Shown here in pieces: positions 5,593 to 26,678 of a stretch of 52,407 nucleotides of DNA (its first letter is position 1; the number at the start of each line of letters is the position of its first letter). The DNA comes from a virus. The notes beneath the pieces were generated by a model. The model did not search any database and was not told the origin of the DNA. It worked only from the letters and a program-made list of their open reading frames with translations. The stretch lies in UHGV virus genome UHGV-0113213; one strand, 5' to 3'. Position numbers and translations under genes: made by a program.

Positions 5593-6123
5593 TTAACTTA
5601 CAACGTCTAAGGCGTCTTTATTGTTTGTTGTGTCTATGCCTAACGATCCGACGTTTGAACCTACTTTCATTTCTCCTAATAGGATTGGCACTGGTCTACC
5701 CTGTCCTACCCTGTTTTCTATGCTGGTGTAAGTGTTATTAGTTATGGTGTTATCCTGCGCGCTTTCTGATGATGTTTTTACCTTCATGTTGCGAGACATA
5801 AAAATAGAAAAAGCGACGCTGACAACTGATATACCAATCATAATCCAGCCAATCACACCAATACCTGCAATACCACCTTCAACTATTGGCGCAATAATTA
5901 CCGTAGTTCCATCTGGATATTTGCTATTAACAGCCGCTGGCGCGGTCTTTTCGTTGTAATCTTTCCCGGCAATTCGTAAGCGCAAAGGTGTATTTAAAAA
6001 CGCCTTTTTAAATTCCTGATTCTGCGCGGTCAATAAGCGAAGCCCTTGCGCTGGCGTTTCAACGTTTAAACACACTTTGCTGTAATATCTTCGAAGATTG
6101 CCCGTAAATCTAAATTTGAGCAT
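5593..6123 (-). CDS. I: Tail assembly protein I
   Basis: 176 aa with C-terminal hydrophobic Gly-rich segment and conserved end (ILLGEMKVGSNV) like lambda I; between K and J. Confidence 0.75.
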   Translation of the reverse strand: MLKFRFTGNLRRYYSKVCLNVETPAQGLRLLTAQNQEFKKAFLNTPLRLRIAGKDYNEKTAPAAVNSKYPDGTTVIIAPIVEGGIAGIGVIGWIMIGISVVSVAFSIFMSRNMKVKTSSESAQDNTITNNTYTSIENRVGQGRPVPILLGEMKVGSNVGSLGIDTTNNKDALDVVS

Positions 6124-13311: not shown

Positions 13312-14002
13312 CAAAACGCCCGGATCTACCGGGCTTTTCTTGCTCACGATTTTTCATTCTTTCTAGTGCCTTTTTAGCGGCCTCCATTTGCTCGTCATAA
13401 GCACGTTTATTTATGTGAATGTTTGGCTTGCTTTTCTCGTTTCTTTCGTCTGGCGGCGTTTTAGCGCGTACAGCGGCCCTATATCCGGTCATTGTCATAT
13501 TCCATGCTTCCGATTCTGACAAGCCCAGGTGAGCAACGGCAGAATAGACGAATTCAAGGACGTTAAAAGTCGGCTTATATTCCCCTTCCGGGATTTCCCC
13601 GGACTCTTCTTCCGGGCCATCACCAATAAGACCGTGGTACATGCAGTGCTGCGCAAGCGTGATGATATCCTCGATCGGCATTAATCCGGGCTTTAACTTT
13701 AACTTACCCGAAGGAGTAAACCAGCATTCGCCCAATAACGGGCCTATTTCGTCGTCTGAGCAACATTTCAGGATGTGCATTGATGTCTGAACTATTTCAC
13801 CATAACACCGCGCCAGAATGCGATTGCGTAGGTCTGGATCTGCTGGCAATCGTGATGGATATTTGCCGCCGTGGATAAGTGCGAAATATTCGACAAGCTC
13901 ACTATCGTTGCCGATTTTAGCCATCGCAGCAAAGCAAGGATTAAACTCATAGCGCTTACCGTTCACCACGGCAGCAAATTGTCCTGTACGAACATGGATC
14001 AT
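13304..14002 (-). CDS. Putative tail assembly chaperone (G/GT analogue)
   Basis: Position between major tail protein and tape measure; acidic middle region; start moved to ATG at 14000-14002 with AAGGTG RBS; no frameshift site verified. Confidence 0.45.
   Translation of the reverse strand: MIHVRTGQFAAVVNGKRYEFNPCFAAMAKIGNDSELVEYFALIHGGKYPSRLPADPDLRNRILARCYGEIVQTSMHILKCCSDDEIGPLLGECWFTPSGKLKLKPGLMPIEDIITLAQHCMYHGLIGDGPEEESGEIPEGEYKPTFNVLEFVYSAVAHLGLSESEAWNMTMTGYRAAVRAKTPPDERNEKSKPNIHINKRAYDEQMEAAKKALERMKNREQEKPGRSGRFAN
13318..13342 (+). terminator. Rho-independent terminator after lipoprotein morons (stem GCCCGG/CCGGGC + TTTTCT)
   Basis: Hairpin followed by T-run on plus strand. Confidence 0.6.
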
Positions 14003-14011
14003 AGTATTCAC

Positions 14012-14039
14012 CTTAAAAGAAAAGGGGCCAAATGGCCCC
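14012..14039 (-). terminator. Hairpin plus U-run after major tail protein gene (attenuator/terminator)
   Basis: Stem GGGGCC/GGCCCC followed by T-run on minus strand. Confidence 0.55.
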
Positions 14040-14057
14040 GATTGTTAATATTGGCTG

Positions 14058-14534
14058 TTATGCTGGCGGAACGTCGCCTACCGTTACCTTGCCAGCGCTT
14101 TCGCACTCAATAGACCAGGTGGAAACATCATCATGCGGATCTTCTTCTTTAAAGGAAGTGCAAAGGAATGGGCCTTCAGTTACGTCTACAGGAGAAACGA
14201 TCTTCAGCCATACATAAGGTTGTGATCCGGTGGTTTCACCTGGCGTAATTACGTGGCGTTTCAGCGCTTTCTGATTATGGATTTCTTCAGTGCGGGACAC
14301 ACCGTCGCCGGAGAAAGAAACGGATTTGTAAGTAACCATTGATTCTTTCGTGTAATCGGCTGATTTATCGGCGGTGGCGTCAGCGGTTTCCCATTCAACG
14401 GAAAGTGTTTTACCACGCATCATGCCTAACGCTTTGTACGCTTCAGCTTCCGGCTTCGCATTTGGACAAGCGATAGCGAAGAATACAGCAACGTCACGGC
14501 CTGTAAACGTGCCTTTTTCGCAAGTCTGAGACAT
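14058..14534 (-). CDS. Major tail (tube) protein
   Basis: 158 aa, position upstream of chaperone/tape measure, followed by strong hairpin; composition typical of siphovirus tube proteins. Confidence 0.65.
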   Translation of the reverse strand: MSQTCEKGTFTGRDVAVFFAIACPNAKPEAEAYKALGMMRGKTLSVEWETADATADKSADYTKESMVTYKSVSFSGDGVSRTEEIHNQKALKRHVITPGETTGSQPYVWLKIVSPVDVTEGPFLCTSFKEEDPHDDVSTWSIECESAGKVTVGDVPPA

Positions 14535-21473: not shown

Positions 21474-22988
21474 TTAAAATCCGCGCAGGCGCTTAGGTAA
21501 CATAAGGCCCATTGCCTGTGGCTGGCTTAATTCAGTGATACCCCACACCATAGCGTCGAGGCGGTCAGGTGATTTTTTAGCGGTAGCTGGCACGTATTCC
21601 ATCATTTGATTTTCCAGCGTGTACAGGCTGCCTGTGTGGGCCACCCTTCCTTGTGCATACAGTGCCGATATTGGCTCGGCGCGGGCGAATTTACCCTTGC
21701 TTGCGTGCACCTTAACAATGCGGCCTTTGAATCCGGCGTTACGTAGCGTGGCCTCTGCCATATCACCACCCTGGTTGGTTTCGATAACCATCGCGTCAGC
21801 TTCATGGATGTTGTAGGCGTTCATTGCTGCTTGCGCCCAGTCATTAGGTGACATGCGTCCTGAGTAGTCACCGTCTACTGAATACTGAGCATTCTTGCCA
21901 CCACCATAAGCGGAACAGGCTACAATCCCTGTTTCGTCTGACTCATCAGATGATGTTGTCGCCGGGTCGATGGCTATCACCGTGCGAATTTTCTCCTGCG
22001 TTATCTGCATCCTGTGCGCGGCGGTTATCATCGCTTCAGTCCACAATGCGCCCTCTTGATCGAACTTGCGCGGACACTGCATATATTGAGCTTCGAATGT
22101 TCGGCGATGTGATTTAAGAGTTGATTCATCTTTATCACTATGCTTATGCAACCATAGCCAGCCATCCGGCAGGTTGTGAGGAACAGGAATAGCAAATTTG
22201 TTTTCCGGGTACAGATCCCAATAGTCAAGACTGTTGTCGATCTTCACTGGCAGGCAAAGGTGATGCCATTTCTCACCACTACCGCCACGTAACAGGTAGC
22301 CGGATAAATCATCGTAGTGGATACGCTGCATGATGACGATCACTGGCGTTGTTTGCACAGCCAGGCGCGAAGAAAGCGTGTCGTTGTAATTGGTATTAAC
22401 CTGCTTTCGCACCACATCAGAATAAGCGTCAGCTGGTTTCAGGGGGTCATCAATAATCATTGCGCCGTTAAACCCAGGTTCCATGTACCCGGCGCGGAAC
22501 CCTGTCACCTGTCCAAGCGATGACGTCGCATACACGCCGCCACCCTGAGTGGTCCACCACAGGTTTTTCGCGTTCGAATCGTTGCGCATTTGCATAGGCC
22601 ACAATTCCTGATATTGCGGCATCGTGATTATGTTTCTTGTCTCTGAGGAATTAAGCAAGGCGAGTCCGTGTGAATACGATACATGCAGGAATCTGGTGCG
22701 GGGTTCTATTGCGAGGCAGCGGGCCATCATGTGAATTGTGGCAATCATTGTTTTGCCATAGCCCGGTGGGATGTTGATTATCAACCTGGTGATTTCACCA
22801 TTAATAACTCGTTGTAGCGTATCGGCAATTATTCTGTGATGACGCCCAACCAAAAAGTCCTTGCCAACCTGTTGCTTATAAAAGTAGGAACTAAAAAACA
22901 AAGGTGCTGATATGTCTTTGGGGGCACAACCTTTAACACACAACCCCCTTAGAACCTCTCTGTCAATCTTTGTCGTCGCAGTCTCCAT
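21474..22988 (-). CDS. terL: Terminase large subunit
   Basis: 504 aa; Walker A-like PPGYGKT; C-terminal nuclease-type acidic motifs; position before portal. Confidence 0.9.
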   Translation of the reverse strand: METATTKIDREVLRGLCVKGCAPKDISAPLFFSSYFYKQQVGKDFLVGRHHRIIADTLQRVINGEITRLIINIPPGYGKTMIATIHMMARCLAIEPRTRFLHVSYSHGLALLNSSETRNIITMPQYQELWPMQMRNDSNAKNLWWTTQGGGVYATSSLGQVTGFRAGYMEPGFNGAMIIDDPLKPADAYSDVVRKQVNTNYNDTLSSRLAVQTTPVIVIMQRIHYDDLSGYLLRGGSGEKWHHLCLPVKIDNSLDYWDLYPENKFAIPVPHNLPDGWLWLHKHSDKDESTLKSHRRTFEAQYMQCPRKFDQEGALWTEAMITAAHRMQITQEKIRTVIAIDPATTSSDESDETGIVACSAYGGGKNAQYSVDGDYSGRMSPNDWAQAAMNAYNIHEADAMVIETNQGGDMAEATLRNAGFKGRIVKVHASKGKFARAEPISALYAQGRVAHTGSLYTLENQMMEYVPATAKKSPDRLDAMVWGITELSQPQAMGLMLPKRLRGF

Positions 22989-23478
22989 GAGTATTGTACT
23001 CCTTATTCAGGTTATCGATTATCTCAAGGACAGTAGTCTGATTTACTTCTACCTGGACGGGCGCTTCTTCCCTGTTACCTACGATCTCCTGCGTGACGCG
23101 CTCACCATATTTACGCGGTTGCAGTTTTGCCAGTAACCATTTACGAGTTTCAATCATCAGTTGATGGCGGCGGCATTGGTCTTTATCGGTGTTCTCCGCT
23201 GCGTCTGCTATGTCGATAATCTCATCAGCCAATATCTCAAAACCGATCTCCTTCGCGCGCATGTACATGTCCGAGAACTCCGGCACGTCTCTGAACCATT
23301 TAAGGATTGTTGAACGCGCAGGCATATCAGGCATCTTCGAAATTTTGTTAATACTCTGACCGTCCGCCACCAGCTCACAGATTTCTAATGCCTTTTCTTC
23401 GGTATAACCATGCGGACGGCCCGTCTTTTTGGCTGCTGGCTTTTTATCGTCAGCATTTGCCTTTTTAGTGCGGGCCAT
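22963..23478 (-). CDS. terS: Terminase small subunit
   Basis: 171 aa, N-terminal basic region and HTH-like segment, overlaps TerL start. Confidence 0.7.
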   Translation of the reverse strand: MARTKKANADDKKPAAKKTGRPHGYTEEKALEICELVADGQSINKISKMPDMPARSTILKWFRDVPEFSDMYMRAKEIGFEILADEIIDIADAAENTDKDQCRRHQLMIETRKWLLAKLQPRKYGERVTQEIVGNREEAPVQVEVNQTTVLEIIDNLNKEYNTHGDCDDKD

Positions 23479-23488
23479 AATTCACCTC

Positions 23489-23632
23489 TTAATCATCTTT
23501 ACCAAATCTTAATTTAAATTCATTCATCATCTTTTCTACTTCCTGTTCGGAAAGATAGATGGTTTCATTATTTTCTGCTGAATCAAGTGCCTTTCTTATT
23601 TCATCTGCTATTTTTAGTTCTTCATCGTTCAT
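23489..23632 (-). CDS. Small acidic protein (47 aa) MNDEELKIADEIRKALDSAENNETIYLSEQEVEKMMNEFKLRFGKDD
   Basis: ATG with GAGGTG RBS; last gene before terS; soluble acidic. Confidence 0.5.
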   Translation of the reverse strand: MNDEELKIADEIRKALDSAENNETIYLSEQEVEKMMNEFKLRFGKDD

Positions 23633-23643
23633 ATCGTCACCTC

Positions 23644-23727
23644 TTAATATTTGTTGATGATATATACGCAAGCCACAAAACTTGCGCAATATGTTAATAC
23701 TTCCAACCAGTCGAATAGCTCTTTCAT
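23644..23727 (-). CDS. Mini-gene, 27-aa hydrophobic peptide MKELFDWLEVLTYCASFVACVYIINKY
   Basis: ATG overlaps upstream stop (ATGA); hydrophobic helix. Confidence 0.45.
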   Translation of the reverse strand: MKELFDWLEVLTYCASFVACVYIINKY

Positions 23728-23867
23728 TGTTGCCCCTTGAATATATGCTTCGCTTCTCTGTAAATTAGCGCACCAGTCATTACAATCGCGTATACGCATA
23801 ACATTAACGCGACGATAAGCACGCCAGAACAAAGCAAAAACATCAGTAGATCGATAAATTCAAACAT
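23724..23867 (-). CDS. Mini-gene, 47-aa membrane peptide MFEFIDLLMFLLCSGVLIVALMLCVYAIVMTGALIYREAKHIFKGQQ
   Basis: ATG 8 nt after upstream stop (GGTGAG RBS); two hydrophobic stretches. Confidence 0.45.
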   Translation of the reverse strand: MFEFIDLLMFLLCSGVLIVALMLCVYAIVMTGALIYREAKHIFKGQQ

Positions 23868-23875
23868 AATATTTC

Positions 23876-23944
23876 TCACCAGGAGAAAACAATAACAACC
23901 AACAGTGCGCTTATAGCTATAATTAAGAAATCACTATCAGACAT
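23876..23944 (-). CDS. Mini-gene, 22-aa single-TM peptide MSDSDFLIIAISALLVVIVFSW
   Basis: Start overlaps upstream gene by ATGTCTGA. Confidence 0.45.
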   Translation of the reverse strand: MSDSDFLIIAISALLVVIVFSW

Positions 23945-24011
23945 TGATAATTACCAAGATAATAAATAACGCAACTGTACACACGATCAACATAATATCA
24001 ATAGCGTTCAT
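23937..24011 (-). CDS. Mini-gene, 24-aa single-TM peptide MNAIDIMLIVCTVALFIILVIINV
   Basis: GTGAG RBS then ATG 8 nt after upstream stop. Confidence 0.45.
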   Translation of the reverse strand: MNAIDIMLIVCTVALFIILVIINV

Positions 24012-24019
24012 TCGCTCAC

Positions 24020-24088
24020 CTACTGAGTCAGTGCTGTCATGGTAAGAACAATCGCGACAATCAGGAAAAAGAAATCAAGCCATTTCAT
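24020..24088 (-). CDS. Mini-gene, 22-aa single-TM peptide MKWLDFFFLIVAIVLTMTALTQ
   Basis: AGGAG RBS in 15-nt spacer. Confidence 0.45.
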   Translation of the reverse strand: MKWLDFFFLIVAIVLTMTALTQ

Positions 24089-24103
24089 TTTAACTCCTGA
24101 GAT

Positions 24104-24175
24104 TCAGTTAACACTTAAAAGCACCGCAACGATGACAATCACTATAATCATGCAAAAGAAGTCTGCTTCTCTCAT
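24104..24175 (-). CDS. Mini-gene, 23-aa single-TM peptide MREADFFCMIIVIVIVAVLLSVN
   Basis: ATGA overlap with upstream stop. Confidence 0.45.
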   Translation of the reverse strand: MREADFFCMIIVIVIVAVLLSVN

Positions 24176-24252
24176 CTTTTTAGCCCTCGATAAAAATCAA
24201 CAGCAATGACTACAACTACAGCCACCAGCAATAGCATTTCGTATGCGTTCAT
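24172..24252 (-). CDS. Mini-gene, 26-aa single-TM peptide MNAYEMLLLVAVVVVIAVDFYRGLKR
   Basis: ATGA overlap with upstream stop. Confidence 0.45.
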   Translation of the reverse strand: MNAYEMLLLVAVVVVIAVDFYRGLKR

Positions 24253-24347
24253 TTGATGCTACCCATAACAAGGCCGATGATAATAATTATGGCGACAATG
24301 CCTAACATCATTCCGAACATAATCGCCATCAGTTCGAATATATCCAT
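24249..24347 (-). CDS. Mini-gene, 32-aa single-TM peptide MDIFELMAIMFGMMLGIVAIIIIIGLVMGSIK
   Basis: ATG 3 nt after upstream stop. Confidence 0.45.
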   Translation of the reverse strand: MDIFELMAIMFGMMLGIVAIIIIIGLVMGSIK

Positions 24348-24350
24348 GCT

Positions 24351-24425
24351 TCAGCTTTCAATGAATATCATGATCGCCAGCCATACGGCGACGCATAAGG
24401 AAAGGATGATTAGCGGGTCAATCAT
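24351..24425 (-). CDS. Mini-gene, 24-aa single-TM peptide MIDPLIILSLCVAVWLAIMIFIES
   Basis: GGTGGGG RBS, ATG 4 nt after upstream stop. Confidence 0.45.
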   Translation of the reverse strand: MIDPLIILSLCVAVWLAIMIFIES

Positions 24426-24429
24426 ATTT

Positions 24430-24540
24430 TCACCCCACCAAATACTTGATATATACGTTTATCAGCGCAACTATAATAGAACCAGCAAGAAACACAGAAA
24501 CGCCGATTAATACGGCAATGATGTAAGCGGCCATAATCAT
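24430..24540 (-). CDS. Mini-gene, 36-aa membrane peptide MIMAAYIIAVLIGVSVFLAGSIIVALINVYIKYLVG
   Basis: TAATG overlap with upstream stop. Confidence 0.45.
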   Translation of the reverse strand: MIMAAYIIAVLIGVSVFLAGSIIVALINVYIKYLVG

Positions 24541-24602
24541 TACTTCCACAACAAAAACAATATTACAGCCGCCGCCATTCCGATAAATAAATAAGCGTCC
24601 AT
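24540..24602 (-). CDS. Mini-gene, 20-aa single-TM peptide MDAYLFIGMAAAVILFLLWK (first of array)
   Basis: ATG 2 nt after stop of HExxH gene, GAGG RBS inside that gene. Confidence 0.45.
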   Translation of the reverse strand: MDAYLFIGMAAAVILFLLWK

Positions 24603-24604
24603 AA

Positions 24605-25189
24605 TCAGCCTCGTTTAAAGCTCATTACACGCGGTACAAGCGCCTCTTTTGCTTTAGGCTTACGTTTGCCTTTCTTGGCTGGTTTTTTCTCTTCTTTCGG
24701 CTCCTCTGCCTGCTCTACTGCCTGTTCTGCTGCATCAGTCGCCTTTTCCGCCTGCTCCAATGCCTGCTCAACGACTTCAGCGGCCTGCATAGCTGCCAAC
24801 TGTGCTTCGTTAGATTCAGCCAGGATCGGGAAGAATGCATCAAAGATGCGGCCCACCATGTAAGCATATGTCTCGTTTGCCGGATGGCTTGGTTCTGTAG
24901 TCGCTACGACACCGACATCACTTAAAACGTGGAATGTAGTGTGAGCCGCTTCATGTACCAGCGTACCAAGCTCATTATCGAATACTGCGATCACGTAGAA
25001 GTTACCGCCTTTCTCGCCAGTGCAAGTAAGTGTTAAACCTCCTGCCAGTTCAAAATCAGGTTCGATTGGGATCCCTGCCTTTTCGCAAAATTCATAGAAC
25101 ATGTCACGAGTCGGGCAGAAGAAAACTGTTGTATGCTCGAAGAGCGGGACTTTGAATTGAGGCAACTTAATGCCTTTACCCTTAGCCAT
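24605..25189 (-). CDS. HExxH-motif protein (194 aa) with Lys/Ala/Glu-rich C-terminal tail; putative minimal zinc metallopeptidase-like protein
   Basis: Motif TLVHEAAHTTFHV; low-complexity repeat AEQAVEQAEEPKEEKKPAKKGKRKPKAK; directly precedes mini-gene array. Confidence 0.55.
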   Translation of the reverse strand: MAKGKGIKLPQFKVPLFEHTTVFFCPTRDMFYEFCEKAGIPIEPDFELAGGLTLTCTGEKGGNFYVIAVFDNELGTLVHEAAHTTFHVLSDVGVVATTEPSHPANETYAYMVGRIFDAFFPILAESNEAQLAAMQAAEVVEQALEQAEKATDAAEQAVEQAEEPKEEKKPAKKGKRKPKAKEALVPRVMSFKRG

Positions 25190-25526
25190 CAGAATATTCC
25201 TCTATCCTGAAAAATATAACCCCCGCAAAACTGGACACCGCAGGGAGTGAAAACAGATATAAAACACTGAAAACGGCGCTTAGTGAGTACCGTTTGCAGA
25301 ATTTTATAAAACTGGACCTGCTTAACATCTCTGATAAACAGATCCGGGCGCTCGTCCTACGCGTGGCAGGTGAGTAAATGGCGCTTTCTTCTACCCAGGT
25401 AGCGCCGTACCTGTTAATGAGGTTGTTTACCCGGTATTACGTGTTTTTGAATTTCCGCCGTCGCTCGCGGGAAGGATTGACCCGGTTATGGCTGGCTGGC
25501 AGAAACGGCGACACGTCCACGAGCTG

Positions 25527-26015
25527 TTATTCTTTACGCAAGCACTGCGTTTTGATGTAGTCCTGTAGGCCAGTGATCTGTGCGTCTTTTATTTTTAGTT
25601 GTTCTCTGAGGGATAGATAAGCCGATTTAGCGTCGGCAGTAGGTTCGCAGGTGGCTCCATCAATGCGGCTGGAGGTTCCGGTATTACTGTCTGTTCGCAT
25701 TGGCACGGCGTTGACGCGCAACCGGATAGTACCGTTATCAATGCCAGTGCGCAGATCGGCAATGTCAGATCTGATAGCTTTAATCTCATCGTGATACCTC
25801 TTATCAAGTTTTGACAGTTCGGCGTTTCGCTCCTTCATCTGCTGAATAGTGTTACTTGCTGTCTTCAGTGCGCCTTTCGTCACCGTGACTTCTTCCTGTA
25901 ACCTTGTCGCCTCACCCTGGTAATAACACGTTACGGCGGTTAGTCCGGCAATAATGCAAACAACAGCGGCGATAATTAACGCCTTCACCTTGTCCACGTT
26001 TCCCCCCATTCGCAA
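25527..26015 (-). CDS. Rz: Rz-like i-spanin
   Basis: N-terminal TM helix, coiled-coil periplasmic domain, C-terminal Cys; contains embedded Rz1 in +1 frame; overlaps endolysin end. Confidence 0.8.
25595..25789 (-). CDS. Rz1: Rz1-like o-spanin lipoprotein embedded within Rz
   Basis: [24 protein letters not shown] lipobox followed by Pro-rich short mature peptide; embedded in Rz reading frame +1. Confidence 0.8.
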   Translation of the reverse strand: MRLKLSDLTLPICALALITVLSGCASTPCQCEQTVIPEPPAALMEPPANLLPTLNRLIYPSENN

Positions 26016-26476
26016 ACGGCATATTCAACATCTCGGCGGTTTACCAGGCCTTGCCACTTCTTACCACCAGCGTATACCCAGCGTTTAAGCTGTGCGCACG
26101 CCTCTGATTTCTTACCGTCATTGAGTAGCTTTAATAAGGTTGATGTTTTGAAGTTGGTTGCGCCTACGTTATAGGCGAATGAATAAAGCGCAGCGCGGGT
26201 AAAATCTGATATTTCGACTTTGATATATGGGTTAATCGCTTTTGCGGTTTTGTGGAGATCTTTGTTTAACAAAGTATCGCATTCTGATTGCGTGTAAGTC
26301 TTACCAAGCATGATGTCTTTTCCGGTGTGACCATAGCAAACAGTCCATACACCGATAACATCACGATAAGGATCGTACTCCACGCCCTCTAATGGTTTAA
26401 CCATCACAGCCGCAATAGCGATCGCCCCACCAGCCGCCGCAGCAATAATTTTATTCTTCAGCGATTGGCTAATCAT
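25985..26476 (-). CDS. SAR endolysin (T4-type lysozyme fold, GH24-like)
   Basis: N-terminal signal-arrest-release segment [17 protein letters not shown] then E...D...T catalytic pattern ([23 protein letters not shown]); start at ATG 26474-26476 one nt after holin stop. Confidence 0.85.
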
Positions 26477-26477
26477 G

Positions 26478-26678
26478 TTACTTATTCCCCATTCGCGCGT
26501 CGTGTTCCTCTTGCGCTCGCTTGTTCTCCTGTGATTTGAAGTAATAGTTAACGGCAAATGTGCCTATGGTTGATAAGATACCCACAAAGACAGCAATATC
26601 ATTAATGGTTATCGCGCCGAAAAAAGCAGTTACGGCCCCGGTCACATACGCGCACGCCTCCCGTATTCTGTCGAACAT
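26478..26678 (-). CDS. Holin (pinholin-like, class II)
   Basis: 66 aa, two hydrophobic helices, charged C-terminus; GGAGG RBS; directly upstream of SAR endolysin. Confidence 0.7.

Follow-up and report, generated by a model that had tools for sequence, protein, structure and literature searches.

The signature of gluzincins is HExxH-x18/19-E, which in thermolysin reads HExxH...NExxSD, and active minigluzincins of 100-110 aa exist. Among the systems closest to the locus described here, ArdC coordinates its metal by H201, H205 and E229 (motif H201/E202/H205/E229), and the glutamate-helix motif was defined in the same paper as (E,H)xx(A,F,T,S,G) (PMC7213743). The MPTase core follows the order strand, helix, two strands, HExxH helix and Glu helix (PMC5512222). 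For the family studied here, the clustering as phrog_1365 and one automated metallopeptidase label are known, and it is very probably an uncharacterised member of the well-known zincin superfamily. Literature searches on phrog_1365, on SprT-like proteins together with terminase, and on anti-defence together with metalloprotease found nothing on this family. We analysed one of its members in a stretch of viral DNA of 52,407 nucleotides (UHGV virus genome UHGV-0113213), the whole of which is called the window below.

The gene and its setting in the window

The window belongs to the mEp021 (mEpimmI) group of temperate E. coli siphophages, and the 2.7 kb around the gene are 87-93% identical to mEp021, mEp010, mEp515, mEp554, mEp044, mEp013 and MagusPhagus. 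The features of the gene and its surroundings, by position, strand and content, are as follows.

26478-26678, minus: holin
25985-26557, minus: endolysin
25527-26015, minus: Rz, upstream of the 194-aa ORF
25595-25807, minus: Rz1, upstream of the 194-aa ORF
25190-25526: spacer of 337 nt from Rz to the 194-aa ORF, with no long ORF, ending in a terminator-like hairpin before the RBS of the gene
25210-25245, minus: conserved terminator-like hairpin followed by a T-run (CCCTGCGG...GCGGGGG TTATATTTTT), just 5' of the gene
25198-25202, minus: Shine-Dalgarno-like GAGGA, 8 nt 5' of the ATG of the 194-aa ORF
24605-25189, minus: complete 194-aa ORF with its stop, ATG start, homolog of mEp021_49 (gp49)
24821-25189, minus: zincin-like core, aa 1-123, matching phrog_1365
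24941-24955, minus: HEAAH, aa 79-83, in the context TLVHEAAHTTFHV (H79 and H83, proposed metal ligands; E80, proposed general base)
24860-24877, minus: NETYAY, aa 105-110, on the predicted "glutamate helix" (E106, proposed third ligand; E106 and Y110 invariant)
24698-24820, minus: acidic Ala/Glu/Gln-rich helical linker, aa 124-164, net charge -10
24608-24697, minus: basic disordered tail, aa 165-194, net charge +10, pI 10.9
23724-24602, minus: head-to-tail array of ten mini-ORFs of 20-47 aa, each with a single TM segment, adjoining the 194-aa gene
24540-24602, minus: mini-gene 1 (20 aa, one TM segment), its ATG 2 nt past the stop of the 194-aa ORF
22963-23478, minus: Sf6-type terS, downstream of the mini-ORF array

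The gene is real and under selection, and its homolog mEp021_49 is annotated as "hypothetical protein". The sequence agrees with the preliminary description of this DNA in the 194-aa ORF, the HEAAH motif with its context, the lysine-rich tail and the junction to mini-gene 1 (TGA-TT-ATG), and the coordinates bear out its placing of the ORF between Rz/Rz1 and the mini-gene array. A terminator is annotated in mEp021 at the position equivalent to the hairpin, and the 337-nt spacer is 92% conserved with mEp021 and MagusPhagus (with a 47-nt deletion in MagusPhagus); an Rfam scan of the window, spacer included, gave no match.

At the junction, GAGG lies 6 nt 5' of the ATG of mini-gene 1, and the spacing of the two reading frames would allow translational coupling. 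The mini-ORFs are tightly packed or overlapping, each begins with M-x(1-3)-D/E followed by a single hydrophobic helix, and the whole gives the impression of a fast-growing set of paralogous, tiny membrane peptides. Further small ORFs lie between the array and terS, among them one for a strongly acidic product of 47 aa (MNDEELKIADEIRKALDSAENNE...; 23489-23632, minus strand), directly 5' of terS, in which no Pfam match was found. The N-terminus of terS (22963-23478, minus strand) carries an AT-hook-like, Lys-rich stretch, MARTKKANADDKKPAAKKTGRPHG, similar in composition to the basic tail at aa 165-194. After terS come terL, the portal gene and a MuF-like gene.

The 194-aa protein lacks both a signal peptide and TM segments. 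Its core is acidic (pI 5.0), and its C-terminus ends in ...AEQAVEQAEEPKEEKKPAKKGKRKPKAKEALVPRVMSFKRG. Throughout the mEpimmI-like lineage the basic block KKGKRKPKAKEALVPRVMSFKRG is kept, and indels in the acidic helix account for the 180-, 190- and 194-aa forms among close relatives. One indel of 14 aa, KATDAAEQAVEQAE, in the acidic linker (24698-24820) separates the 194-aa from the 180-aa form in near-identical prophages and seems to have arisen by duplication of the EQALEQAE unit beside it. A few database homologs (P0007, P0008) read past the normal stop codon and give products of 209-211 aa.

Homologs and the assignment of the core domain

Residues 3-130 match phrog_1365 in PHROGs (E=1.6e-29; profile positions 5-123 of 127), the function of which is given there as "unknown". 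Scans of the 194-aa protein against Pfam, NCBIfam and PADLOC returned only compositional matches of the Ala/Glu helix, and no curated family in these three collections reached its threshold for the window protein. About 120 close homologs turned up in E. coli prophages in a word-indexed search, all named "hypothetical"; a MAG homolog of 59% identity bears the name "PolyVal Metallopeptidase superfamily domain" in nr. The gene was found in 34 of 5426 complete E. coli genomes, always annotated as hypothetical. When 1.84 billion cluster representatives were searched exhaustively with a profile, 234 clusters (50% identity) were detected at E<=1e-3, with members that are almost all stand-alone proteins of about 110-140 aa (overall span 95-190 aa). 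The matches from a profile search of 5.8 billion proteins were for the most part the E. coli cluster again, and none carried a precomputed Pfam domain.

Two successive alignments of diverse members (63, then 134 sequences) left only G51, H79, E80, H83, E106 and Y110 invariant (window numbering). The 134 sequences are 22-65% identical to the window protein, and the mean column identity is only 15%. Among the matches listed, HExxH and the following E...Y are both present in 141 of the 151 representatives scanned (150 listed by the representative search and one further close fragment); of the ten that deviate, two are giant low-complexity false positives, four are fragments or frameshifted and four are true variants. 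One of these variants, P0248, has HKAAH in place of HExxH with NETFCY kept, and is possibly a natural inactive form. Of the 141 listed matches, 54 have a distance of 19 residues between the second His and the Glu and 71 a distance of 20; in the window protein a loop insertion makes it 23. Asn usually precedes the Glu (NE[AT][FY][CA]Y), which gives the family signature HExxH-x19/20-NExxxY. The spacing of 19/20 residues is that of the M1 and thermolysin gluzincins. At first sight H87 might be a ligand of the HExxHxxxH type; it is variable among homologs, and H102 varies too. In one protein of such composition HExxH is expected by chance about 0.006-0.015 times, so the single motif alone would be weak evidence, and it is its invariance in the 134 homologs that adds weight.

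The predicted secondary structure comprises strand 21-25, helix 28-38, strands 51-57 and 63-69, helix 74-91 with HExxH (pLDDT about 90; H79, E80 and H83 invariant in the 134 homologs, as expected of a zincin motif), and a helix from residue 103 that carries E106 and Y110, an order that appears to agree with that of the MPTase core and with the three-stranded sheet and backing helix expected ahead of these two helices in a zincin. The AlphaFold2 model from a 22-sequence alignment had a mean pLDDT of 74.6, with 85-93 over residues 51-90 and 83-91 over residues 101-130; a model of the trimmed core from a shallow alignment of seven sequences was of poor quality (pLDDT 49). On the next predicted helix, within the distance of about 18-25 residues expected of a Glu ligand, E106 is invariant and is followed by A or C at the third position (ExxA or ExxC), which fits (E,H)xx(A,F,T,S,G).

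Comparison with models and profiles points the same way. Foldseek against viral models (BFVD) gave 21 matches at E<1e-3, all of them small phage proteins, with a "SprT-like family protein" at rank 16; "SprT-like" and "Metalloprotease" entries stand just above the E cut-off at ranks 22 and 25. The profile of 134 sequences matched the solved zincin myroilysin in the PDB (E=0.011; profile positions 6-112), and a phmmer search of the PDB sequences with the single 194-aa protein gave 0 matches. The Pfam SprT-like family was matched by 34 of the 134 members (best E=1e-4), and the other weak matches were mostly to metallopeptidase families.

From this conservation and these profiles we consider it very likely that the 194-aa protein has a zincin-type domain, an assignment that rests on motif invariance, spacing, secondary-structure order and sub-threshold profile matches rather than on 3D superposition. 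The preliminary description had read the protein as a minimal zincin-like metallopeptidase from its HEAAH motif, and had named loss of the motif in homologs or the lack of a third metal ligand as what would speak against it. Both checks came out in its favour: HExxH is invariant in the 134 aligned homologs, and E106, in NExxxY on the next predicted helix and at canonical gluzincin spacing, is an invariant third-ligand candidate. A conserved domain whose only invariant residues form the gluzincin catalytic set suggests an active zinc endopeptidase, and judged from its sequence the 194-aa protein is likely to be catalytically active.

The linker and tail stand outside this conserved set. In most family members the domain ends about 15 residues past Y110; at least 35 residues follow the Tyr in 7 of the 141 representatives among the matches listed, so that about 95% of members are without a tail. 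Six of these seven listed long-tailed representatives have K/R-rich tails (P0118-P0120, which are mEp021-like, P0121, P0162 and P0168). Being confined to a few lineages, the tail would be a recurrent minority add-on outside the core mechanism of the family, presumably a targeting or regulatory appendage.

Placement in other phages and readings of function

In most of the lineages examined the family gene is placed at the lysis/terminase junction or close to it, and the gene orders are as follows.

P22-like phages L, ST64T, epsilon34 and g341c: Rz, DUF2560, family gene, (Dec), terS
Prophage L004: HNH, nuclease, hypothetical, family gene, hypothetical, terS, terL
L006: terS, family gene, putative terL (489 aa, no Pfam match)
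L008: SLT endolysin, family gene, Rz-like spanin, putative terS/terL (no Pfam match), portal
T7-like Ralstonia phage Anchaing: terL, endolysin, spanin, family gene
Pseudoalteromonas phage H105/1: terL, MuF-like, family gene, Dam methylase
L005, L018, L020 and L021 (one metagenomic phage lineage): ParB_N, ..., ParB_N, ABC-like ATPase, family gene, phrog_886, ..., terL
P22, L013 2962-3327, plus strand (NC_002371.2, about 13861-14226): HkcC-like ORF with no CDS annotated in RefSeq

The copy in P22 and HK620 (HkcC, 121 aa), which lies past the ejection-protein gene 16 in the immI region, is more divergent. The intact 121-aa member of P22, between sieA and mnt, is identical to HK620 HkcC. P22-like phages thus have two alternative loci for the family gene, and some carry both copies. 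In L018 a Tad2-like gene (5729-6004; E=2.6e-29) overlaps the start of the family gene, and in L020 (2896-3252) and L021 a gene of the Acb2/Tad1-hairpin type (E=8.6e-16) is part of its co-directional cluster. Accessory genes generally gather at the lysis/terminase junction, a known hot spot, and arguments from neighbourhood are therefore weak. The virion proteins of mEp021 mapped by mass spectrometry fall in the main structural cluster, except for two whose genes lie upstream of the lysis region; gene 49, with no annotation beyond hypothetical, is therefore not one of them.

From the patchy distribution, the alternative loci, the accessory hot spot and the occasional linkage to anti-defence genes we infer an accessory late gene, for which a host or competitor target is most likely. 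The explanation that we favour as a whole, and hold to be probable, is a cytoplasmic, late-expressed mini-gluzincin encoded by a dispensable accessory gene and acting on a host or competitor protein. The product would be a zinc-dependent endopeptidase of about 120 aa, in which H79 and H83 on the active-site helix and E106 on the following helix would hold the metal, E80 would activate the catalytic water, and Y110, one helical turn past E106, would serve as a second-shell or transition-state residue. Where present, the acidic helix and basic tail would most likely tether the enzyme to a polyanion (DNA or RNA) or a partner protein, or fold back to regulate it. The gene itself would be a dispensable insertion at the lysis/packaging junction of the late operon, the substrate for this reason probably being a protein of the host or of a competing element, which would imply a role in counter-defence or host takeover; action on the mini-peptides, or a role as a core morphogenetic protease, would be unlikely.

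The counter-defence part of this explanation, drawn from gene context, is tentative and in our view somewhat doubtful: anti-defence genes are usually expressed early, which counts against it, since the family gene stands in the late operon. A particular form of it would have the protease, made together with terminase, portal and capsid, cleave host immune sensors triggered by these proteins, and the tailed form might ride the packaged DNA into the next host; we regard this version as quite improbable.

The neighbours of the gene and its tail could also suggest a DNA-tethered protease in packaging, Spartan/SprT- or ArdC-like, which the basic tail would recruit to DNA and which would remove proteins bound or cross-linked to DNA in front of the terminase motor, or process a packaging protein. 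The gene is within a few genes of terS/terL in most lineages (between terS and terL in L006, directly abutting terS in L022), SprT-like is the nearest Pfam family, the net charge of the tail is +10, and K/R-rich tails recur in the distant homologs P0162 and P0168. However, a long tail in only 7 of the 141 listed matches argues that DNA tethering is not the general mode of the family, and a zinc-binding DNA subdomain of the SprT type is absent. Moreover, the P22/HK620 copy lies far from the terminase genes, that of the T7-like phage Anchaing comes after the spanin gene rather than terL, and most related phages lack the gene and yet package DNA normally. A packaging function is thus unlikely.

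Activity itself could be questioned. If the fold were kept as a binding module (inhibitor or adaptor), HExxH would be structural and the protein a catalytically dead scaffold; the domain is at the lower size limit of zincins, and the HKAAH of P0248 indicates that the general base can be lost. Against this, E80 and the three ligand positions are invariant in 134 sequences with a mean column identity of 15%, which is typical of active enzymes, and the minigluzincins show that active enzymes of such size exist. We therefore give little credence to a dead scaffold.

The preliminary description had further proposed, from the position of the gene next to many tiny peptides, that the peptidase processes, matures or regulates the adjacent membrane peptides, or that it acts on envelope proteins in lysis control. 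The gene is indeed immediately beside mini-gene 1, with stop and start 2 nt apart, and it often borders lysis genes (SLT endolysin and spanin in L008; past the spanin in Anchaing and the window). The comparison of relatives lends no support to a functional link to the mini-peptides. While the peptidase stays constant, the number of mini-ORFs varies from 4 in mEp021 to 10 in the window and in MagusPhagus (phages 87-93% identical); in a 53-kb relative (L022/L023) a tailed homolog of 55-56% identity is separated by a 3-nt gap from an Sf6-type terS, with no array at all; and a scripted scan of eight other loci (L003-L010) found no small hydrophobic ORFs flanking the gene. In addition, about 95% of the family is tail-less, the 194-aa protein is without signal peptide or TM segment, and the 20-47-aa peptides are almost wholly one TM helix, which leaves little to process. 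A lineage-specific interaction of the two is conceivable, but nothing points to one, and we consider this proposal very improbable; the peptidase is better separated from the array, which deserves study as a feature of its own.

Control of a genetic switch by an ImmA/IrrE-like protease, through cleavage of a repressor of phage or host, is scarcely credible: IrrE has the same ligand set (HExxH plus Glu), mnt/arc/ant are neighbours of the P22 copy in the immI region and an RHH_1 gene stands two genes upstream in L010, but the Peptidase_M78 HMM was matched by only 1 of 63 members (E=0.099), the gene in the window (Rz to terS) and in most other loci belongs to the late operon, far from the immunity region, and an adjacent XRE or RHH repressor is absent in the window and most other loci.

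A prohead protease was also considered and rejected, as the gene is patchy in close relatives, missing from most, and outside the portal/MuF/coat block.

For the explanation as a mini-gluzincin on an accessory gene, the gain is a defensible enzymatic identity and a mutable catalytic quartet for a phage family annotated "hypothetical" in the records examined. The family spans the E. coli mEpimmI prophages, P22-like Salmonella phages and many metagenomic phages, and P22 itself carries an unannotated intact member. The linkage to Tad2-like and Acb2/Tad1-like genes in one lineage makes protease-based counter-defence a concrete and cheaply testable hypothesis, which, if true, could be tested directly in a classic model phage through the P22 copy. 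That a small metallopeptidase occurs among phage accessory genes is not surprising.

Comparison with known systems

Two sets of phage proteins are true homologs of the 194-aa protein. Orf129 of P22-like phages (L, ST64T) is 44% identical, has the same motifs and lies between the lysis genes and terS; HkcC of HK620/P22 has the same motifs, its P22 copy being 34% identical to the 194-aa protein. In contrast to the window protein, Orf129 and HkcC (121-129 aa) have no acidic helix and no basic tail. All are annotated as hypothetical proteins and so add no functional knowledge.

The SprT-like/Spartan family (PF10263) is the most frequent weak Pfam match and gives its name to BFVD neighbours; it resembles the family in its small zincin core and in a basic, possibly DNA-binding extension, which in our case is found in the tailed lineage. 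Unlike SprT, whose third ligand is His, the family has Glu as its proposed third ligand, with no conserved His past H83, and it lacks the zinc-binding DNA subdomain. The PF10263 HMM did not match the window protein even at E<=1.

With the ArdC MPD and MPTase-PolyVal (PF18818) the window protein shares the HExxH helix, a Glu about 23-24 residues further on the next helix (a ligand in ArdC, a proposed one here) and the ExxA motif; the local context TL(V/A)HEA(A/T)H is common to both, and both are found on mobile elements and are linked to counter-defence. In hhalign the comparison with an alignment of 93 ArdC-MPD sequences gave a probability of 76.5% (P=2e-5, 57 columns), anchored on the strand and the HExxH helix, with the Glu helices out of register; against single sequences the probability was 13% for ArdC and 5% for E. 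coli SprT (YggI). The differences are that the PF18818 HMM stays below threshold (1 of 63 members at E=0.1), that the family is stand-alone at about 120 aa, neither fused to ArdC-N nor part of a polyvalent multidomain protein, and that the conserved Tyr is about 26 residues past the Glu in ArdC (Y255) and 4 in the family.

Thermolysin (M4) and the minigluzincins (proabylysin, PDB 4JIU) differ in that sequence homology to them is not detectable, the likeness being one of motif and spacing, and in that the family has Tyr where the thermolysin NExxSD has Asp. They agree with it in HExxH-x19/20-NE and in a conserved residue 4 past the Glu, and the minigluzincins, of 100-110 aa, are comparable in size.
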